Below are positions 53,979 through 58,467 of a stretch of DNA of 64,000 nucleotides, one piece after another. Origin of the DNA: Acidimicrobiia bacterium (GTDB lineage Bacteria > Actinomycetota > Acidimicrobiia > Spongiisociales > ZC4RG35); assembly GCA_965203555.1 (NCBI GenBank), contig CBDBCY010000002.1:32001-96000 (forward strand), given 5' to 3'. Within the stretch, counting starts at the first letter, position 1. Each line of letters begins with the position of its first letter. The notes under the pieces are model-generated. The model saw only the letters and a program-made list of their open reading frames with translations. It did no database searches and was not told the origin of the DNA. The translations under genes and the position numbers were made by a program.

Positions 53979-54308
53979 ATGGCCCGTCCCTTCAGTGTCG
54001 ACGTGGTGTCGCCGGAGGGGACGCTCTGGTCCGGCGACGCCCAGTTCCTGGTGGCTCGCACCACCGAGGGCGAGATCGGGATCCTGGCAGGTCACGAGCC
54101 GTTGATGGCCGCATTGACGGCCGGAGCGGTGCTGATCGACCATGACGACGACCAGCGAACCACCATCGCCGTTCACGGCGGGTTCATGCAGGTGGTGGAG
54201 AACCGCGTCACCCTGCTGACCGACCGCGCCCGGATCACCGCCGGCGACCGGGCCGAGGCCATCGAGGAGGCGCGCCGACTGGCCGAAGGCGAGTCACCGG
54301 ACTTCTAA
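53979..54308 (+). CDS. atpC: ATP synthase F1 epsilon
   Basis: VVSPE...GEIGILAGHEP...GGFMQV. Confidence 0.93.
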   Translation: MARPFSVDVVSPEGTLWSGDAQFLVARTTEGEIGILAGHEPLMAALTAGAVLIDHDDDQRTTIAVHGGFMQVVENRVTLLTDRARITAGDRAEAIEEARRLAEGESPDF

Positions 54309-54581
54309 CAGAGCCGGTTCCCAGGCGCCGAGTGCCTTCAGGTGGCCTTCGGGAGACATCGAAGCGTGAATGCTCCGGTCCGGCGGCAAGCGCCGGAACC
54401 AAGTGCGGAGGCGCCTGCGGCTCGGGTCCTTACCTGTTCGATGCTCCCTGAGGCTGCGCGTATTTGTGGGGAGCAGGGTTAGGGAGGGGGTCCTTGGTTA
54501 GGGGTCGAGGCTTCGCTGAAATAGGGTGGTGAAAACAAAGGGACTTAGATACATGGGTAGACAGACCCCGACTGTCCTTTT

Positions 54582-54603
54582 TGTCACACCTCCCTCGTAA
54601 CCT
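54582..54603 (+). promoter_or_regulatory. Putative PafBC/RecA-NDp-like leaderless promoter of tnpB
   Basis: TGTCAC-N10-TAACCT, 7 nt before ATG 54611. Confidence 0.5.
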
Positions 54604-54610
54604 TTCCTGT

Positions 54611-55918
54611 ATGCCCCGGATGACGCAGACCTTCCGCTTTCCGGCCAAGTGCTCGCCGTCTGCGCACCGTCGGCTGACGGAGATATTCGGCATGTGCTCA
54701 GAGCTCTACAACGCGGTCCTGGAGTCCTGGAAGGGCACCTACGCGTGGTGGAGAGAGCACAATCTGGAGACGCAGAAGTTCCCCAAAGAGCTCAACCAAT
54801 CCCTCTATGACCGGATGAAGATGTTCACCGATGTGCGCCGGGACCACCCCGAGTGGGGGCACCTCTCTGTCAAGGTCGGCCGGGGTGTTCTGTGCCGCTT
54901 CGACCGCACCGTCCAGGCCTTCTACAAACGCTGTGCGGAGGGGAAGAAGCCGGGGTACCCGAGGTTCAAGTCCCGCCGCCGCTGGCGCACCATCGAGGTA
55001 CCTGACGCCTCCCCGTCCATGATTATCCAGCCGAGGAGTCCCAGGAACCAGAGCGCTGTGTGGTGGCGTCTCCAGGTGAAGGGCGTTCCCCGCCTAAGGT
55101 TCCGGGACAAAGGCGACCGCCTGGCAACGGCTCTGGCAGCGGGGGCCAAACTGGCGGAGTTGCGGGTGGTTCGCACGCCCCTCCGCACGGAGATCCACGC
55201 GGTGGTGAGGCACCCTCCATGCGAGATACCCGTGAAAGAGCCCGCCAACCCGGCGGGGATCGACAGGGGGTTGAAGGTGCGCCTGGCTCTCTCGGATGGA
55301 ACCTTCATCCCTGCCCGTGAGCCCGACAGGACGGCCATCAAGCGGTCCCAGAGGAGGCTCTCCCGAGCGCAGAAGGGATCCAATGCCCGAAGGAAGAAAG
55401 CCCTCGCCCTGGCCAAGGCGCACCGCAGGGAGAAGGAACGGGCCGTCCAGGCCGACTTCCGCCTCGCCCACCACCTGGTGATCACCTACGACGGGATCGC
55501 CGTGGAGCGCCTGAACGTGGCGGCGATGCTCAGGGCCAAGAGATTCTCAAGAAAATTGTCCGACCAGCGGTGGTCGGCCCTCGACTCCATACTGGGATAC
55601 AAAGCCTGGAAAGCTGGTATCCCCTATGAGAGGGTCGACCCGAGTTACACATCCACCGACTGCTCTATCTGTGGCCATCGCCAGGCCATGCCCCTGCACC
55701 TCAGGGTGTTCTCCTGCGAGAGGTGCGGGCTGGAGTTGGACAGGGATGTGAACGCCGCACGAAACACAGGCGCCCGGGGCTTCCCGGGGTCGGGAGGGAC
55801 TTTTCCCGATGCGATGCGCAGAACAAGTCTCCGTCGTAAGACGCCCGCCCCCTCCGGGCGGCGCGGCGCAAGCGGACATCGCAGAACAGTATCCCCCGGG
55901 TCGACTCTGTCTACCTAG
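54611..55918 (+). CDS. tnpB: RNA-guided endonuclease TnpB
   Basis: LYNAVLE, GYPRFK, RuvC-I GIDRG, RuvC-II IAVERL, TSTDCSICG...CERCG zinc ribbon, RuvC-III DRDVNAARN. Confidence 0.93.
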   Translation: MPRMTQTFRFPAKCSPSAHRRLTEIFGMCSELYNAVLESWKGTYAWWREHNLETQKFPKELNQSLYDRMKMFTDVRRDHPEWGHLSVKVGRGVLCRFDRTVQAFYKRCAEGKKPGYPRFKSRRRWRTIEVPDASPSMIIQPRSPRNQSAVWWRLQVKGVPRLRFRDKGDRLATALAAGAKLAELRVVRTPLRTEIHAVVRHPPCEIPVKEPANPAGIDRGLKVRLALSDGTFIPAREPDRTAIKRSQRRLSRAQKGSNARRKKALALAKAHRREKERAVQADFRLAHHLVITYDGIAVERLNVAAMLRAKRFSRKLSDQRWSALDSILGYKAWKAGIPYERVDPSYTSTDCSICGHRQAMPLHLRVFSCERCGLELDRDVNAARNTGARGFPGSGGTFPDAMRRTSLRRKTPAPSGRRGASGHRRTVSPGSTLST

Positions 55919-55931
55919 GTATATAAGTCCC
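55790..55931 (+). ncRNA. Putative TnpB omega-RNA scaffold overlapping the tnpB 3' end
   Basis: Expected position. Stems TCGGGA/TCCCGA (55790-55809) and TGCGATG/CATCGCA (55810-55883), the latter enclosing GTCT/AGAC and CGCCCG/CGGGCG hairpins. Boundaries uncertain. Confidence 0.5.
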
Positions 55932-56391
55932 AAAACAAACGCCTATCCAGGAGGCCTCAATGCTCCCTGAGTCGGCTTTGCCCGGCGACACGATTCTGGT
56001 GGGTTGTGAAAAAACACCGCCCGCTTGGGATGGACATTGTCCCACCCCCGACGCATACTGTTCTCAGCCAAGTCGAATAAAGCGGTCCGGGTTCCCGAGC
56101 TCGCCCGGGATCGGAAGATAGCCAGATCCGTCCGGTCCTCACCGAGGCGCGGATCAAGCGAACCTGCAATGGTAAGGAGGAGGCGGGGGAGGGCACACGG
56201 TGGGGGGTTCGTAGGGTTCCACCAGTTTTCATAGTGTTGCTGTATGCTCAGCTAGTGCCGCATTTAGGGCCCATTTGGCGTTTCTCGAAGTTTCATTTGG
56301 ACCCGTGTAATCCCGCCCAAGAAATCATCACCAAAAGTCCAACGAGGACGAGCAGCCCTCCACCCAACCAAAACCGCGACGCACCACTAGG

Positions 56392-58467
56392 ATGATGCCG
56401 GTGCCTGGTCGGATCACTTACGGAGAACATACGGTGCCTGACTGTCTATTCCCGCTCGGGCGGAGGGGTGATCGACCGAAAGCGGGTGGCCGGCTGATCG
56501 GGTCCGTGGTCGCGGTGGTAATGGTATTGCTGGCGTCCGGTCTGCCCGCGGCGGCCCAGGTGGGTGGCTATCCCGATGTTGAGGGAGGGGTTCATGCCAG
56601 GTCGATCGCTGCCCTGGCTTCTGATGGTCGGGGCATCCTTGCCGGCACCGACTGTGACGGGGGTTTGTTCTGTCCTGACGATCCGCTGCTGAGATGGGTG
56701 ATGGCCGTGTGGCTGGTGCGAGCCGTTGACGGGGCGGACCCTGATCCGTCCGGGGTGTCGAGCTTCACCGATGTGAGTCCCGTTCGATGGTGGGCGCCTT
56801 ACACGAACCGGCTGGCCGATCTCGAAGTAACGAGAGGGTGCTCTGAGGACCCTCCGCGTTACTGCCCGGACCAGTCGGTGACCCGCGCTCAGATGGCAAG
56901 TTTCTTGGCCCGGGCGTTCGAGTTGCCCGGCGGGGCGCCCGGTCGGTTCTCCGACACTGCCAACAACCCACACGCGGAGAACATCGACAAGCTCGCCGCG
57001 GCAGGGATCACCGCCGGATGCGGTCAGGGGCGCTACTGTCCCGACCGGCCGGTGACCCGGGCCCAGATGGCGACGTTCCTGGCTCGTGCTCTGAAGCTCG
57101 TTCCGCTTCCCGGTGCCACGTCGCTGGCCGACGGCTACCGCCTTGCCTACTCCACGGCAGACCCCGACTACGTGGACAGCTATGGATTTGGGAACCAGAT
57201 ATGGATGGCCGGGCTGCAAGGCGGCAGGGAAGCCATAGGATCGTACAGCGGTCATGGCGGTGCTCATCCGATATTCTCACCGGACGGCAGGTGGGTCGCC
57301 TACGGGGCAAGGGACAAGGCCTATGTCATGGGCACGGATGGCCAAAACGTTCGCGAGGTCCGTTCCCGGGGCCGATGGTCCTTCAATTTCCGGTGGTCGC
57401 CCGACTCGAGATACCTGGTGTACAACACTGCTGGAGGTGCCGGAGGTTCGAACTGGATCGAGAGAAGTGATGGGCAGGACAAACGGTCCATCGGTCTTCT
57501 CTGGCGGTTCTCTCCCGATGGGAGGCTCGCTCTCTACAGTGTCTTCGATGAGGTCGACGGAGAACGGGTTTATGTCCATACTGTTGTCGAGGACCTTGAG
57601 AGTGGTGGCCAGGTCACGATCGATGTTGATGAATCCAATGCCCGATACGTGGAGTTCACGCCGGATGGCCGGAGGGTGTCCTGGATAGCGGAGAACCCCA
57701 ACGGTGTTCACCAGGATCTCTGGATAATGGACATCGACGGTAGCAACAGGGTCAAGTTACTGACGGCAGGCTTGGGTAACCTTCCAGGCTCGGCCAAGCT
57801 ACGCTGGTCGCCCGACGGTAGCCGATTCGCCTACGTTAAGGGTTATGGTATCGGAACCCAGTTCATCGTGGCGGACGCCGCCAACGGTGAGACGATCATG
57901 AACCTAGGTATCAGCAAGTGCAACTACCTTGACTGGGCACCGGATAGCGCACATCTGGTTTCTGACAACCGTGAAGGGTTCGTGTTCAACACGCTCACCG
58001 GGGACACGATAAGGCAGCGGGATCTCTACACGGGAGACCCGAGATACGGTCGGATTCTGAATGTCCGATGGTCGCCGGACAATCAGTCCTTTGCCTACAT
58101 TCTGGAAGAAGAAGACCCCAACAGTCCCGTCCTACCCTCCGATATCTTTGAAGAAGTATCCGACATTTCCAGAGAGTTATGGACCGATCCATATTTCCCC
58201 GTTTCTACACAACTATGGATTGCGGACGCTGATGGAAAGAACAAGAGGAAACTGGTCGACAATGTAGGATACGACTTTCGTTGGTCACCCGACGGCAAAC
58301 GTATAGCCTACTCGACTCTGTCCCCCATCAGATTCGACGAAGCCGGACCCCTACCGCGCTCTGCATCCGCGCTATGGATCACGGATAGCGACGGCAGTAA
58401 CCAATGGAGTGTTGTTGCCCAACCTGAATACGGCCGAATCACCCTCTTAGGTTGGCTACCAAGCTGA
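56392..58467 (+). CDS. Secreted S-layer homology (SLH) domain protein with TolB/PD40-like beta-propeller
   Basis: Signal peptide ending ...LPAAAQ, three SLH-like units (FCPDD, YCPDQSVTRAQMASFL, YCPDRPVTRAQMATFL), eight (W/F)(S/T/A)PD(G/S/N) blades. True start may lie downstream. Confidence 0.85.
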   Translation: MMPVPGRITYGEHTVPDCLFPLGRRGDRPKAGGRLIGSVVAVVMVLLASGLPAAAQVGGYPDVEGGVHARSIAALASDGRGILAGTDCDGGLFCPDDPLLRWVMAVWLVRAVDGADPDPSGVSSFTDVSPVRWWAPYTNRLADLEVTRGCSEDPPRYCPDQSVTRAQMASFLARAFELPGGAPGRFSDTANNPHAENIDKLAAAGITAGCGQGRYCPDRPVTRAQMATFLARALKLVPLPGATSLADGYRLAYSTADPDYVDSYGFGNQIWMAGLQGGREAIGSYSGHGGAHPIFSPDGRWVAYGARDKAYVMGTDGQNVREVRSRGRWSFNFRWSPDSRYLVYNTAGGAGGSNWIERSDGQDKRSIGLLWRFSPDGRLALYSVFDEVDGERVYVHTVVEDLESGGQVTIDVDESNARYVEFTPDGRRVSWIAENPNGVHQDLWIMDIDGSNRVKLLTAGLGNLPGSAKLRWSPDGSRFAYVKGYGIGTQFIVADAANGETIMNLGISKCNYLDWAPDSAHLVSDNREGFVFNTLTGDTIRQRDLYTGDPRYGRILNVRWSPDNQSFAYILEEEDPNSPVLPSDIFEEVSDISRELWTDPYFPVSTQLWIADADGKNKRKLVDNVGYDFRWSPDGKRIAYSTLSPIRFDEAGPLPRSASALWITDSDGSNQWSVVAQPEYGRITLLGWLPS

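Follow-up and report, generated by a model that had tools for sequence, protein, structure and literature searches.

A probable IS1595-lineage transposon of Acidimicrobiia carrying tnpB in place of a transposase gene

INTRODUCTION

Prokaryotic TnpB is currently explained almost wholly through IS605 and IS607 elements, in which the target motif of the transposase doubles as the TAM of the nuclease, and the presumed role of the solo TnpBs of IS200/IS605 and IS607 elements is that of a homing nuclease preserving the element. IS200/IS605 and IS607 elements are described as lacking TIRs and TSDs and as requiring a Y1 or serine TnpA (PMC3627910; PMC13565253). Altae-Tran et al. (2023, PMC10691335) reported six branches of DDE-associated TnpBs, DDE-1 to DDE-6, whose elements have inverted terminal repeats; in their account, the 3' end of these TnpBs lies at most 250 bp from an element end, and solo TnpBs sharing such ends are presumed to move in trans; for the DDE-5 branch, the SI appendix mentions a "TA motif 8 bp upstream of the transposon end." The DDE families named are IS630 in the main text of that study and ISL2, IS630, and IS1031 in a review (PMC13565253), and IS1595 appears in the SI appendix of PMC10691335 only among the listed comparison profiles. 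The IS1595 family is defined by an 8-bp duplication (PMC8101967) and comprises elements with passenger genes, termed "transporter IS" (Siguier et al. 2009, via PMC3129680 and PMC8101967). A full-text literature search for both terms gave no IS1595-TnpB link, as judged by titles and abstract openings. In eukaryotes and their viruses, Fanzor1 is found in TIR/TSD transposons (Bao and Jurka 2013, PMC3627910; Yoon et al. 2023, PMC10711439), and Fanzor reRNAs are reported to hold the TIR and the TSD within their scaffold, with the guide located beyond the TSD (PMC10711439).

The current study deals with a tnpB element in a window of 64,000 nucleotides, i.e., the whole stretch of DNA that was analyzed and to which all coordinates refer. 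The element resembles IS1595 in its GG(G) start, TIRs of about 25 nt, and an 8-bp duplication, but whereas the IS1595 relatives encode a transposase plus passengers, it lacks a transposase and its cargo consists of tnpB and a predicted ωRNA only. With the DDE branches of Altae-Tran et al. it shares a prokaryotic TnpB inside inverted-repeat ends, and with DDE-5 a short motif 8 bp outside the element end; their association was, however, defined by a DDE gene within 1 kb (PMC10691335), whereas the tnpB loci of this study had none within 1.5 to 6 kb. The tnpB family with IS1595 ends may already be contained in one of these branches, with DDE-5 as the candidate. The "undescribed class" of the original prediction, put forward as a possibility, was too strong a term, because DDE-associated and solo, trans-moved TnpBs are included in PMC10691335; the DDE-linked class has been described since 2023, and the new observation is the one-sided G described below.

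The likeness to Fanzor1 elements lies in a TnpB-type passenger that frequently has no other gene beside it in a non-autonomous DDE-type TIR/TSD element and in a guide RNA that would run out through the TIR. The differences are that the window element is bacterial, its nuclease a canonical compact TnpB, and its likely partner IS1595. The family links bacterial IS1595 to the eukaryotic Fanzors on TIR/TSD transposons. Merlin is the eukaryotic relative of IS1595; its name has no occurrence in the text of Bao and Jurka (PMC3627910). A solo tnpB with a 3' ωRNA is also characteristic of the tnpB-only elements of the IS1341 group and of IS607, but in contrast to IS200/IS605 and IS607 elements, which have subterminal hairpins or GG ends, TIRs and 8-bp duplications were present throughout the family described here. 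This family is set apart from IS605/IS607 by target sites that are AT-rich but otherwise loosely defined and are duplicated over 8 bp, since a transposase with such target sites cannot share its motif with the nuclease.

RESULTS AND DISCUSSION

Structure of the element and its tnpB gene

The element has a length of 1392 bp (positions 54540-55931) and is bounded by 26-nt TIRs that are complementary at 23/26 positions (88%). The left arm, GGGACTTAGATACATGGGTAGACAGA (54540..54565, plus strand), and the right arm, which reads GGGACTTATATACCTAGGTAGACAGA inward (55906..55931, minus strand), form the longest inverted repeat within positions 54300-56200, and several sister copies match the right TIR perfectly over 19 nt at their own right ends. 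A perfect 8-bp target-site duplication, AAAACAAA, flanks the element at 54532..54539 and 55932..55939. The inverted-repeat search and the flanks hence confirmed the unit, its ends, and its TSD as originally proposed. Within the element no transposase ORF was found, again as predicted: the sole long ORF (54581/54620-55918, plus strand) is tnpB, and no product combines the N-terminal Zn ribbon with the DDE_Tnp_IS1595 domain of an IS1595 transposase. Without a transposase, the element is non-autonomous.

The tnpB gene (54620..55918, plus strand) encodes 432 aa from the ATG at 54620, with ATG 54611 and TTG 54581 as other starts, and its stop codon (TAG, 55916-55918) lies within the right TIR, as had been noted at the outset. 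The product scored 181.1 bits against the NCBIfam model guided_TnpB (cut-off, 100) and remained under the cut-offs of IS200_TnpB (117.5; cut-off, 425) and IS607_TnpB (90.7; cut-off, 350), while the Pfam scores were 50.3 bits for OrfB_IS605 and 78.8 bits for Cas12f1-like_TNB. It carries the D, E, D residues of the OrfB_IS605/RuvC domain and the C4 zinc ribbon of a TnpB, and their predicted intactness was corroborated by an alignment of 10 intact homologues, in which D215 and E296 are invariant and D376 and the zinc-ribbon residues C348, C351, C366, and C369 show a conservation of at least 90%, up to invariance. The RuvC half matched ISDra2 TnpB (8BF8/8EXA; E = 1e-28). Between tnpB copies, dN/dS amounts to 0.16 to 0.32, and the gene is under purifying selection.

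A promoter had been proposed 16 bp after the left TIR. The corresponding leader block TTGTCACACC..GTAACCT (54581..54604, plus strand) is kept in most copies of the left-end alignment, a conservation that stands behind this part of the claim and makes the block a possible promoter or regulatory site; its two hexamers are spaced by 11 nt, and a consensus sigma-70 scan of the left end revealed no canonical promoter at this position; the promoter assignment itself is only partly supported.

The 3' portion of about 175 nt (55756..55931, plus strand) is a conserved, covarying ωRNA-like structure that extends over the weakly conserved final part of the ORF and stops at the right TIR; its location over the gene's 3' end, reaching the right end of the element, is that of a TnpB ωRNA. 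RNAalifold predicted 24 pairs from an alignment of 22 copies, in which the motif CAGAACAGTA is invariant. For 21 of these pairs, 96.3% of the cells pair, and compensatory changes are present in 7 pairs, a number reached by 3/500 shuffles; the covariation score was 0.270, compared with 0.171 for the shuffles (0/500) and at most 0.088 for slid controls. A single-sequence fold was no better than shuffles (z = -0.57), a measure that is uninformative at this G+C content, and a comparison with Rfam yielded no ωRNA family, with a NiCo match at chance level (E = 0.61) as the only hit. In the metatranscriptome run X20, a single contig spans no more of the element than 55776-55934 (depth, 2.8); this is weak evidence, with DNA carry-over possible and RNA ends not readable from contigs. 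By analogy with TnpB ωRNAs, in which the scaffold stops where the element does, and from the ωRNA anatomy and the position of the G discussed below, the adjoining flank (55932..55951, plus strand) would be the putative guide-encoding sequence.

Sister copies and IS1595-family partners

The search for further copies called for by the original prediction recovered TIR-bounded tnpB insertions at 39 distinct sites in Acidimicrobiia genomes, all of them MAGs, and metagenomes. An AT-rich 8-bp duplication with at most one mismatch was present at 25 sites (19 perfect, 6 with one mismatch), and the other 14 of 39 sites, with two or more mismatches, have no clean duplication. Each of the 25 clean duplications is different from all others, and because the duplications and flanks all differ, the insertions are independent. 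Copies from other orders of Acidimicrobiia are included, with the duplications ATTACAGT (L065), TATTCAGT (L066), and TAGATTAA (G441). The TIR pattern occurred 6 to 31 times per genome versus 0 to 4 times for a reversed control pattern. TIRs were present in every close tnpB homologue examined, and homologues down to 54% identity had common TIRs with differing 8-bp duplications; in most copies, 5 to 13 nt separate the tnpB stop codon from the right end. Neither a Y1 nor a serine recombinase was seen, and the more distant TnpBs of the class (≤130 bits) lack these TIRs. The window's genome contains only one intact copy. Since TIRs and 8-bp duplications recur around the homologues, the repeat in the window is beyond chance, and the tnpB element is confirmed as a real mobile element.

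Matches to PF12762 were detected in 11/101 related genomes. Complete autonomous elements, the partners anticipated with matching ends, were found in L109 (2746 bp; duplication ATAACTAA), L110 (TTACGTTT), L112 (CAAACATT), L113 (CAACGAAA), and L159 (AAACATTG). Such autonomous IS1595-family elements, present in sister genomes and within the same genus, have 8-bp duplications like the tnpB element and encode both Zn_ribbon_IS1595 (PF12760; 29 to 36 bits) and DDE_Tnp_IS1595 (PF12762; 120 to 132 bits). The TIRs of L109 equal those of the window element at 19 to 21 of 26 positions (20 to 21 for the left TIR), including the inner GGGTAGAC block, and the ends are of the IS1595 type, with a GGG start, a length of about 25 nt, and an inner GTAGACA/GTTGACA block. 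Both family traits, the 8-bp duplication and TIRs in common with transposase-encoding elements, are thus present, and IS1595, one of the families originally considered, is the likely transposase partner. The proposal of a non-autonomous, DDE-mobilized element is supported by the sister copies and by these autonomous elements with their matching ends. An IS1595-derived, trans-mobilized architecture is highly probable, and we regard it as probable, with good confidence, that positions 54540-55931 represent a non-autonomous IS1595-lineage transposon in which tnpB and the ωRNA replace the transposase gene.

The autonomous relatives have passenger genes of their own, namely, a methyltransferase-HNH fusion and a DUF2513 protein. 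The likeness of the TIRs to those of the IS1595 partners, 19 to 21 of 26 positions, is short of identity. The tnpB elements and IS1595 transposases occur together in genomes G008, G441, and G452. No element with both genes in cis was found at the tnpB loci with their flanks of 1.5 to 6 kb, and no transposase was among the 52 ORFs that adjoin lone TIRs at 6 loci. In the genomes richest in tnpB (G012, G003, and G004), IS1595 transposases are absent or present as fragments only, none of them intact, and G000 has a subthreshold match of 21.7 bits. As the window's genome is without an intact IS1595 transposase, the copy in the window probably has no means of moving at present and is stranded.

A one-sided G outside the duplication

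The base directly 5' of the left duplication, G54531 (plus strand), might act as a TAM. Of the 25 insertions whose duplication has no more than one mismatch, 24 have G in front of the duplication on the side upstream of tnpB, and a further copy in run X6 (duplication AAACCTAT) is likewise preceded by G. The mirror position beyond the other duplication is C in only 6/25, and tnpB-less relatives with the same ends have G at 5/16 ends (binomial P = 1e-11; Fisher P = 1.4e-5). At the occupied right junction, the last base of the TIR is C in every case, compared with the G at position -1 in 24/25 sites, a pattern that would fit a TAM.

A retention model would connect these observations. An IS1595-type transposase acting in trans would bind the TIRs and insert the element via an 8-bp staggered cut, and an ωRNA whose transcription continues across the right TIR into flanking DNA would provide each copy with a guide matching its own insertion site, i.e., the duplication and downstream DNA. 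The TnpB-ωRNA complex would then cut element-free alleles, in which the guide-matching sequence follows G, while the occupied allele would be immune, as the same sequence there follows the C that ends the TIR (..GTCCC), and repair from the occupied copy would restore the element. The transposase would be indifferent to the G, and only insertions that happen to have it would persist: because sites would be picked regardless of G, only G-flanked insertions would be maintained, and such selective maintenance would explain the G in 24/25 copies. For the part of this model that involves a one-base TAM and homing, we see an even chance of being correct. The wider proposal, under which the TAM of this TnpB lineage was reduced to one G just outside the 8-bp duplication as an adaptation to a DDE transposon that duplicates its target and chooses AT-rich sites loosely, is tentative and stands somewhat below that. 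The TAMs of studied TnpBs comprise 4 to 5 nt, and one base would be much shorter. The mode of IS1595 transposition, cut-and-paste or copy-paste, is to our knowledge not established, and the benefit of homing is therefore conjectural.

Alternatively, the G might reflect a target preference, either of the transposase itself or of a transpososome that is asymmetric, a need of tnpB expression, or a shared ancestry of the sites, with the real TAM and guide located elsewhere, e.g., with the duplication inside the scaffold as proposed for Fanzor1. This explanation is unlikely, although it gains from the small size of the tnpB-less control (16 ends) and from the reported inclusion of TIR and TSD in the Fanzor reRNA scaffold (PMC10711439). 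It is opposed by the restriction of the G to the tnpB-upstream side (24/25, versus 6/25 for the mirror C and 5/16 in tnpB-less elements) and by the 25 different duplications and flanks, which are indicative of independent insertions. Moreover, a variable 8-nt duplication is unable to serve as part of a fixed scaffold, and if the TAM were contained entirely in the duplication, the occupied allele would be open to cleavage, too. Whereas the Fanzor reRNA scaffold is proposed to absorb the TSD, the target in the window seems to begin at the duplication, with the G before it.

If this wider proposal of a TAM reduced to one G is true, the near-universal G in extant copies would be a natural survivorship record, RNA-guided homing rather than the transposase would decide on persistence, and the family would point to a compact TnpB whose TAM hardly restricts its targets. 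The one-sided G (24/25) would represent a field signature of homing or retention that makes the benefit of TnpB for a DDE transposon directly testable, and the protein is a candidate for a small nuclease that needs only a minimal TAM.

ISL3 host context and other elements with the same ends

The tnpB element is inserted into the stub of an ISL3 element, whose 5' end (left TIR and leader) occupies 54449..54531 on the plus strand and continues at 55940-55962, with 91 to 95% identity to 8 ISL3 left ends, all from the window's own genome. Paralogous ISL3 copies have a single A-rich 9-mer at the insertion point and represent uninterrupted targets without the repeats. The insertion is hence evident from paralogous empty sites, which favors the original prediction. 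A direct empty site was not obtained at orthologous loci, where the homology between genomes stops at atpC because the tnpB element sits in the ISL3 stub. A contig of run X2 skips 54441-55959, i.e., the stub and the tnpB element jointly, and is therefore not an empty site of the tnpB element alone.

ISL3 had also been named as a candidate family, and it is an example, abundant in these genomes, of another 8-bp-duplicating DDE family that might move the elements, the IS1595 likeness then being coincidental. ISL3 likewise makes 8-bp duplications, and its transposase genes are present in 5/5 genomes examined (3 to 18 matches each), including tnpB-rich ones without an intact IS1595 transposase. 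The ends of the resident ISL3 elements (GGAGGCTGCGCGTATTTGTGGGG.., GGCCCTTCGCGAATT.., and GGATCTTCGGAAATTAG..) are, however, unlike those of the window element (GGGACTTATATACC..), whereas the IS1595 ends equal the latter at 19 to 21 of 26 positions. ISL3 was excluded as a partner on account of its unrelated ends, and a mover from any such other family is very unlikely.

Ends of the same IS1595 type also bound MITEs of 275 to 711 bp, a 572-bp MITE in the window's genome (C1:55018; duplication AAAAAAAG), and a 3513-bp element, L038, with three unknown genes and the duplication ACAGAAAA. These elements bear on the idea that TnpB, with its RuvC/RNase H fold, is itself the transposase and the TIR elements are autonomous, a notion encouraged by tnpB being the only gene of the element, by the absence of intact IS1595 transposases from the copy-richest genomes, and by the purifying selection on tnpB. 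Yet tnpB-less elements with the same ends (IS1595, MITEs, and the cargo element) have perfect 8-bp duplications, the autonomous relatives possess a bona fide DDE transposase, and the known role of TnpB as a nuclease accords with the predicted ωRNA and the TAM-like G. We know of no TnpB that transposes DNA, and we consider this idea highly improbable. That an IS605/IS607-type tnpB landed just once in an unrelated MITE, or that the inverted repeat arose by chance, is compatible with the single intact copy in the window's genome but can be practically dismissed, since every close homologue has the common TIRs, mostly with 5 to 13 nt between the stop codon and the right end, neither a Y1 nor a serine recombinase was seen, distant TnpBs (≤130 bits) lack the TIRs, and the objection of IS605/IS607 ends on homologues, raised in advance as a possible refutation, fails with common TIRs and differing duplications down to 54% identity.

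The 640-aa protein of L038 was considered as a novel transposase and rejected: it has no Pfam or NCBIfam match and occurs in only 1/61 genomes (G004), where a 69% identical paralogue is present, and it was treated as cargo because of the missing domain match and the single genome. In L080, 52 bp separate the remnant of a DDE gene from a GGGACCTATATAC end, and the MITE C1:55018 and the autonomous element L110 have GGGA.TTATATACCTAAGTGGCGAAA in common.

Ends and gene of the tnpB element

The tnpB element (window positions 54540-55931, 1392 bp) is delimited by 26-nt terminal inverted repeats (TIRs; 54540-54565 and 55906-55931) that match at 23/26 positions and constitute the longest inverted repeat found in the region, with the octamer AAAACAAA on either side; the original observation of both features was confirmed. 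The sole long ORF between the arms (54620 or 54581 to 55918) has Pfam matches to OrfB_IS605 and Cas12f1-like_TNB, exceeds the cut-off of the NCBIfam model guided_TnpB (181 bits; cut-off, 100), and scores under the cut-offs of both IS200_TnpB and IS607_TnpB. Its RuvC half matches ISDra2 TnpB (E = 1e-28), and ten aligned intact homologues show conservation of the proposed RuvC residues D, E, and D and of all four cysteines of the zinc ribbon. The element indeed contains no transposase gene, and the stop codon of tnpB falls within the right TIR. Regarding the promoter postulated next to the left TIR, a conserved block is present at 54581-54604, but it does not represent a canonical sigma-70 site.

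Copies and distribution of the family

The source genome is a 3.4-Mb Acidimicrobiia MAG, and the window sequence is present in runs from sponge, coral, and marine metagenomes. This genome contains one intact tnpB copy and two fragments. Homologues (E ≤ 1e-20) were detected in 7 of 61 related genomes, among them the source genome; these genomes belong to a single genus, and the positive ones other than the source have 3-20 matches each. More copies occur in two other Acidimicrobiia lineages and on metagenome contigs, and one copy stems from the Acidimicrobiia family Ca. Spongiisociaceae. A TIR pair with tnpB inside was found at 39 distinct insertion sites, whose 8-bp target-site duplications are perfect in 19 cases, contain one mismatch in 6 cases, and two or more mismatches in 14 cases; among the last group, locus L048 has ATTAAGAT shifted in register by one base. 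The duplications are all different; they are AT-rich, with A or T at positions 1-3 in 17-19 of the 19 sites tabulated first. Single genomes contain 6-31 occurrences of the TIR pattern and 0-4 of a reversed control pattern. The alternative that close homologues have IS605 or IS607 ends fails, because they carry TIRs and 8-bp duplications, and such ends are absent from TnpBs outside the clade (130 bits or less). The tnpB elements represent a genuine, well-defined family.

Outside the window, the source genome also harbors an internally deleted tnpB element at C4:~375236-375603, which consists of two TIR-like ends and the 3' third of tnpB (76% identity to the window tnpB) and directly follows a tRNA-like sequence at its 3' end. 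At C4:2043367-2043543, there is a separate fragment of the 5' part of tnpB.

Insertion into an ISL3 element

The tnpB element lies in the 5'-terminal part of an ISL3 element, of which 83 bp are found to its left and 23 bp past the right duplication; eight other copies of the host ISL3 are present in the source genome. Uninterrupted copies read GGTGGTG-, then TAAGCGAAT, AAACAAAAA, or TAAACAAAA, and then -CGCCTA, and the window reads GGTGGTG-AAAACAAA-element-AAAACAAA-CGCCTATCC. The uninterrupted copies are paralogous empty sites with one A-rich segment and no TIRs.

The ISL3 stub of roughly 113 bp (54441-54531 and 55940-55971) comprises the left TIR and the leader as far as the start codon of the transposase gene, and a 12-nt direct repeat, ATGCTCCCTGAG, brackets the stub together with the tnpB element. 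A contig from public run X2 joins 54440 to 55960, and since it lacks all 1519 bp, an allele without the stub and the tnpB element exists in nature. Contig depth in public runs climbs sharply at an 80-nt repeat (56313-56392) with four more copies on contig C4 (90-95% identity).

One-sided G and ωRNA-like region

With all sites oriented by tnpB, G occupies the position immediately 5' of the left duplication (-1) in 24 of the 25 sites with clean duplications (binomial test versus 31% G, p = 1e-11) and in 10 of 14 unclean ones. At the mirror position after the right duplication, the clean sites show 9 A, 7 G, 6 C, and 3 T. The control, eight elements that lack tnpB but have ends of this kind, showed G at 5/16 ends (Fisher's test versus tnpB sites, p = 1.4e-5). 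An extra copy in run X6 with the duplication AAACCTAT also has the G. The ωRNA scaffold of studied TnpBs ends at the element boundary; if the scaffold stops there and the guide begins with the duplication, the one-sided G would be as expected of a TAM. The right TIR ends in C in every aligned copy; hence, a G stands before the duplication and its downstream flank in the unoccupied allele only. Empty alleles might be cut by TnpB-ωRNA, repair after the cut would put the element back, and G-flanked insertions alone would persist.

For the right ends of twenty-two copies (the terminal 260 nt and 20 nt of flank), RNAalifold predicted a consensus structure, and on 21 of its pairs standard pairing is seen in 96.3% of cells. 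Compensatory changes affect 7 of these 21 pairs, which was equalled by 3/500 shuffles, and the covariation score was 0.270, compared to 0.171 for the shuffles (0/500 reached the observed value) and at most 0.088 for slid controls. The strongest helix is formed by GCGATGC and its partner immediately before the invariant CAGAACAGTA; downstream of it come a variable linker and then the right TIR, and sequence conservation ends exactly at the TIR end. The last ~50 codons of the ORF overlap this ωRNA-like structure and are poorly conserved; dN/dS is 0.16-0.32 for the remainder of TnpB. Rfam yielded no match for the region, and its single-sequence fold was uninformative. Of the element, one metatranscriptome contig contains only 55776-55934, from where it continues into flanking sequence of its own locus; this weakly hints at the 3' end as the abundant RNA. 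In several subfamilies, the variable linker that adjoins the inner edge of the right TIR forms a short palindrome with inner TIR bases (right-end alignment A1, columns ~285-312; e.g., GACAGCG-C-CGCTGTC), possibly a binding site of the transposase or a portion of the 3' stem of the ωRNA.

Likely IS1595-type partner transposase

Matches to PF12762 (DDE_Tnp_IS1595) were found in 11 of 101 related genomes. Complete IS1595-family elements have sizes of 2.3-3.5 kb, ends such as GGGAATTACATACTTGGGTAGACG and GGGAATTATATACCTAAGTGGCGAAA, perfect 8-bp duplications (ATAACTAA, TTACGTTT, CAAACATT, CAACGAAA, and AAACATTG), and proteins of 318-324 aa with Zn_ribbon_IS1595 and DDE_Tnp_IS1595 domains. The first end type agrees with the window TIRs at 19-21/26 positions, including the inner GGGTAGAC block. 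The second is that of a 572-bp MITE in the source genome (C1:55018-55589, outside the window; IS1595-type ends, GGGATTTATATACCTAAGTGGCG..), which is flanked on both sides by AAAAAAAG, unlike AAAACAAA, and whose ends agree with those of L110, an autonomous element from a sister genome. Genome G004 contains a DDE fragment at a distance of 52 bp from a GGGACCTATATAC end. Matching ends, 8-bp duplications, and transposases in related genomes favor IS1595, one of the families initially considered, as the likely partner. The autonomous elements fit published features of this family, which are given as an 8-bp duplication, a transposase with Zn-finger and DDE_Tnp_IS1595 domains, and passenger genes in some members (PMC8101967, PMC3129680). 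ISL3, also initially considered, was rejected as the mobilizer: its transposases are abundant, but its ends are unrelated to the window TIRs.

No IS1595 transposase was found within the 1.5-6-kb flanks of the tnpB loci examined, no intact one in the genomes with most tnpB copies (G012, G003, and G004), and only a sub-threshold match in the source genome; both components occur together in three genomes (G008, G441, and G452). The window copy is probably currently stranded, and mobilization in the loci examined would be strictly in trans.

Bacterial elements with tnpB alone are stated to have neither TIRs nor target-site duplications (Bao & Jurka 2013, PMC3627910), and the DDE partners of TnpB given in a review from 2026 are ISL2, IS630, and IS1031 (PMC13565253). 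In the SI appendix of Altae-Tran et al., IS1595 appears only among listed comparison profiles (PMC10691335), and the present family may already be catalogued in their Additional Files or tables. A full-text literature search for IS1595 and TnpB revealed no described link, as far as titles and abstract beginnings show. The distinguishing features are the IS1595-type partner, the apparent trans mobilization in the loci seen, the 8-bp duplication, and the TAM-like single G.

A 3513-bp element of G004 (locus L038, 2509-6021; G004:C1:952908-956420) shares the TIRs of the tnpB elements, is flanked by the perfect duplication ACAGAAAA, and contains three ORFs (640, 170, and 253 aa) for which neither Pfam nor NCBIfam provides a family. 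A paralogue of the 640-aa protein (69% identity) is encoded at another site of G004, beside TIR debris; the 640-aa protein was rejected as the mobilizer and treated as cargo because it is present in only 1 of 61 genomes (G004). Autonomous IS1595-family elements with passenger genes (L109, 4041-6786; L110, 4123-7046; L112; and L113) are 'transporter IS' elements. L109 carries an N6/N4 DNA methyltransferase-HNH nuclease fusion (450 aa) and a DUF2513 protein, and a methyltransferase-like fragment adjoins the transposase in L110; a restriction-modification-like or addiction role of this cargo is possible.
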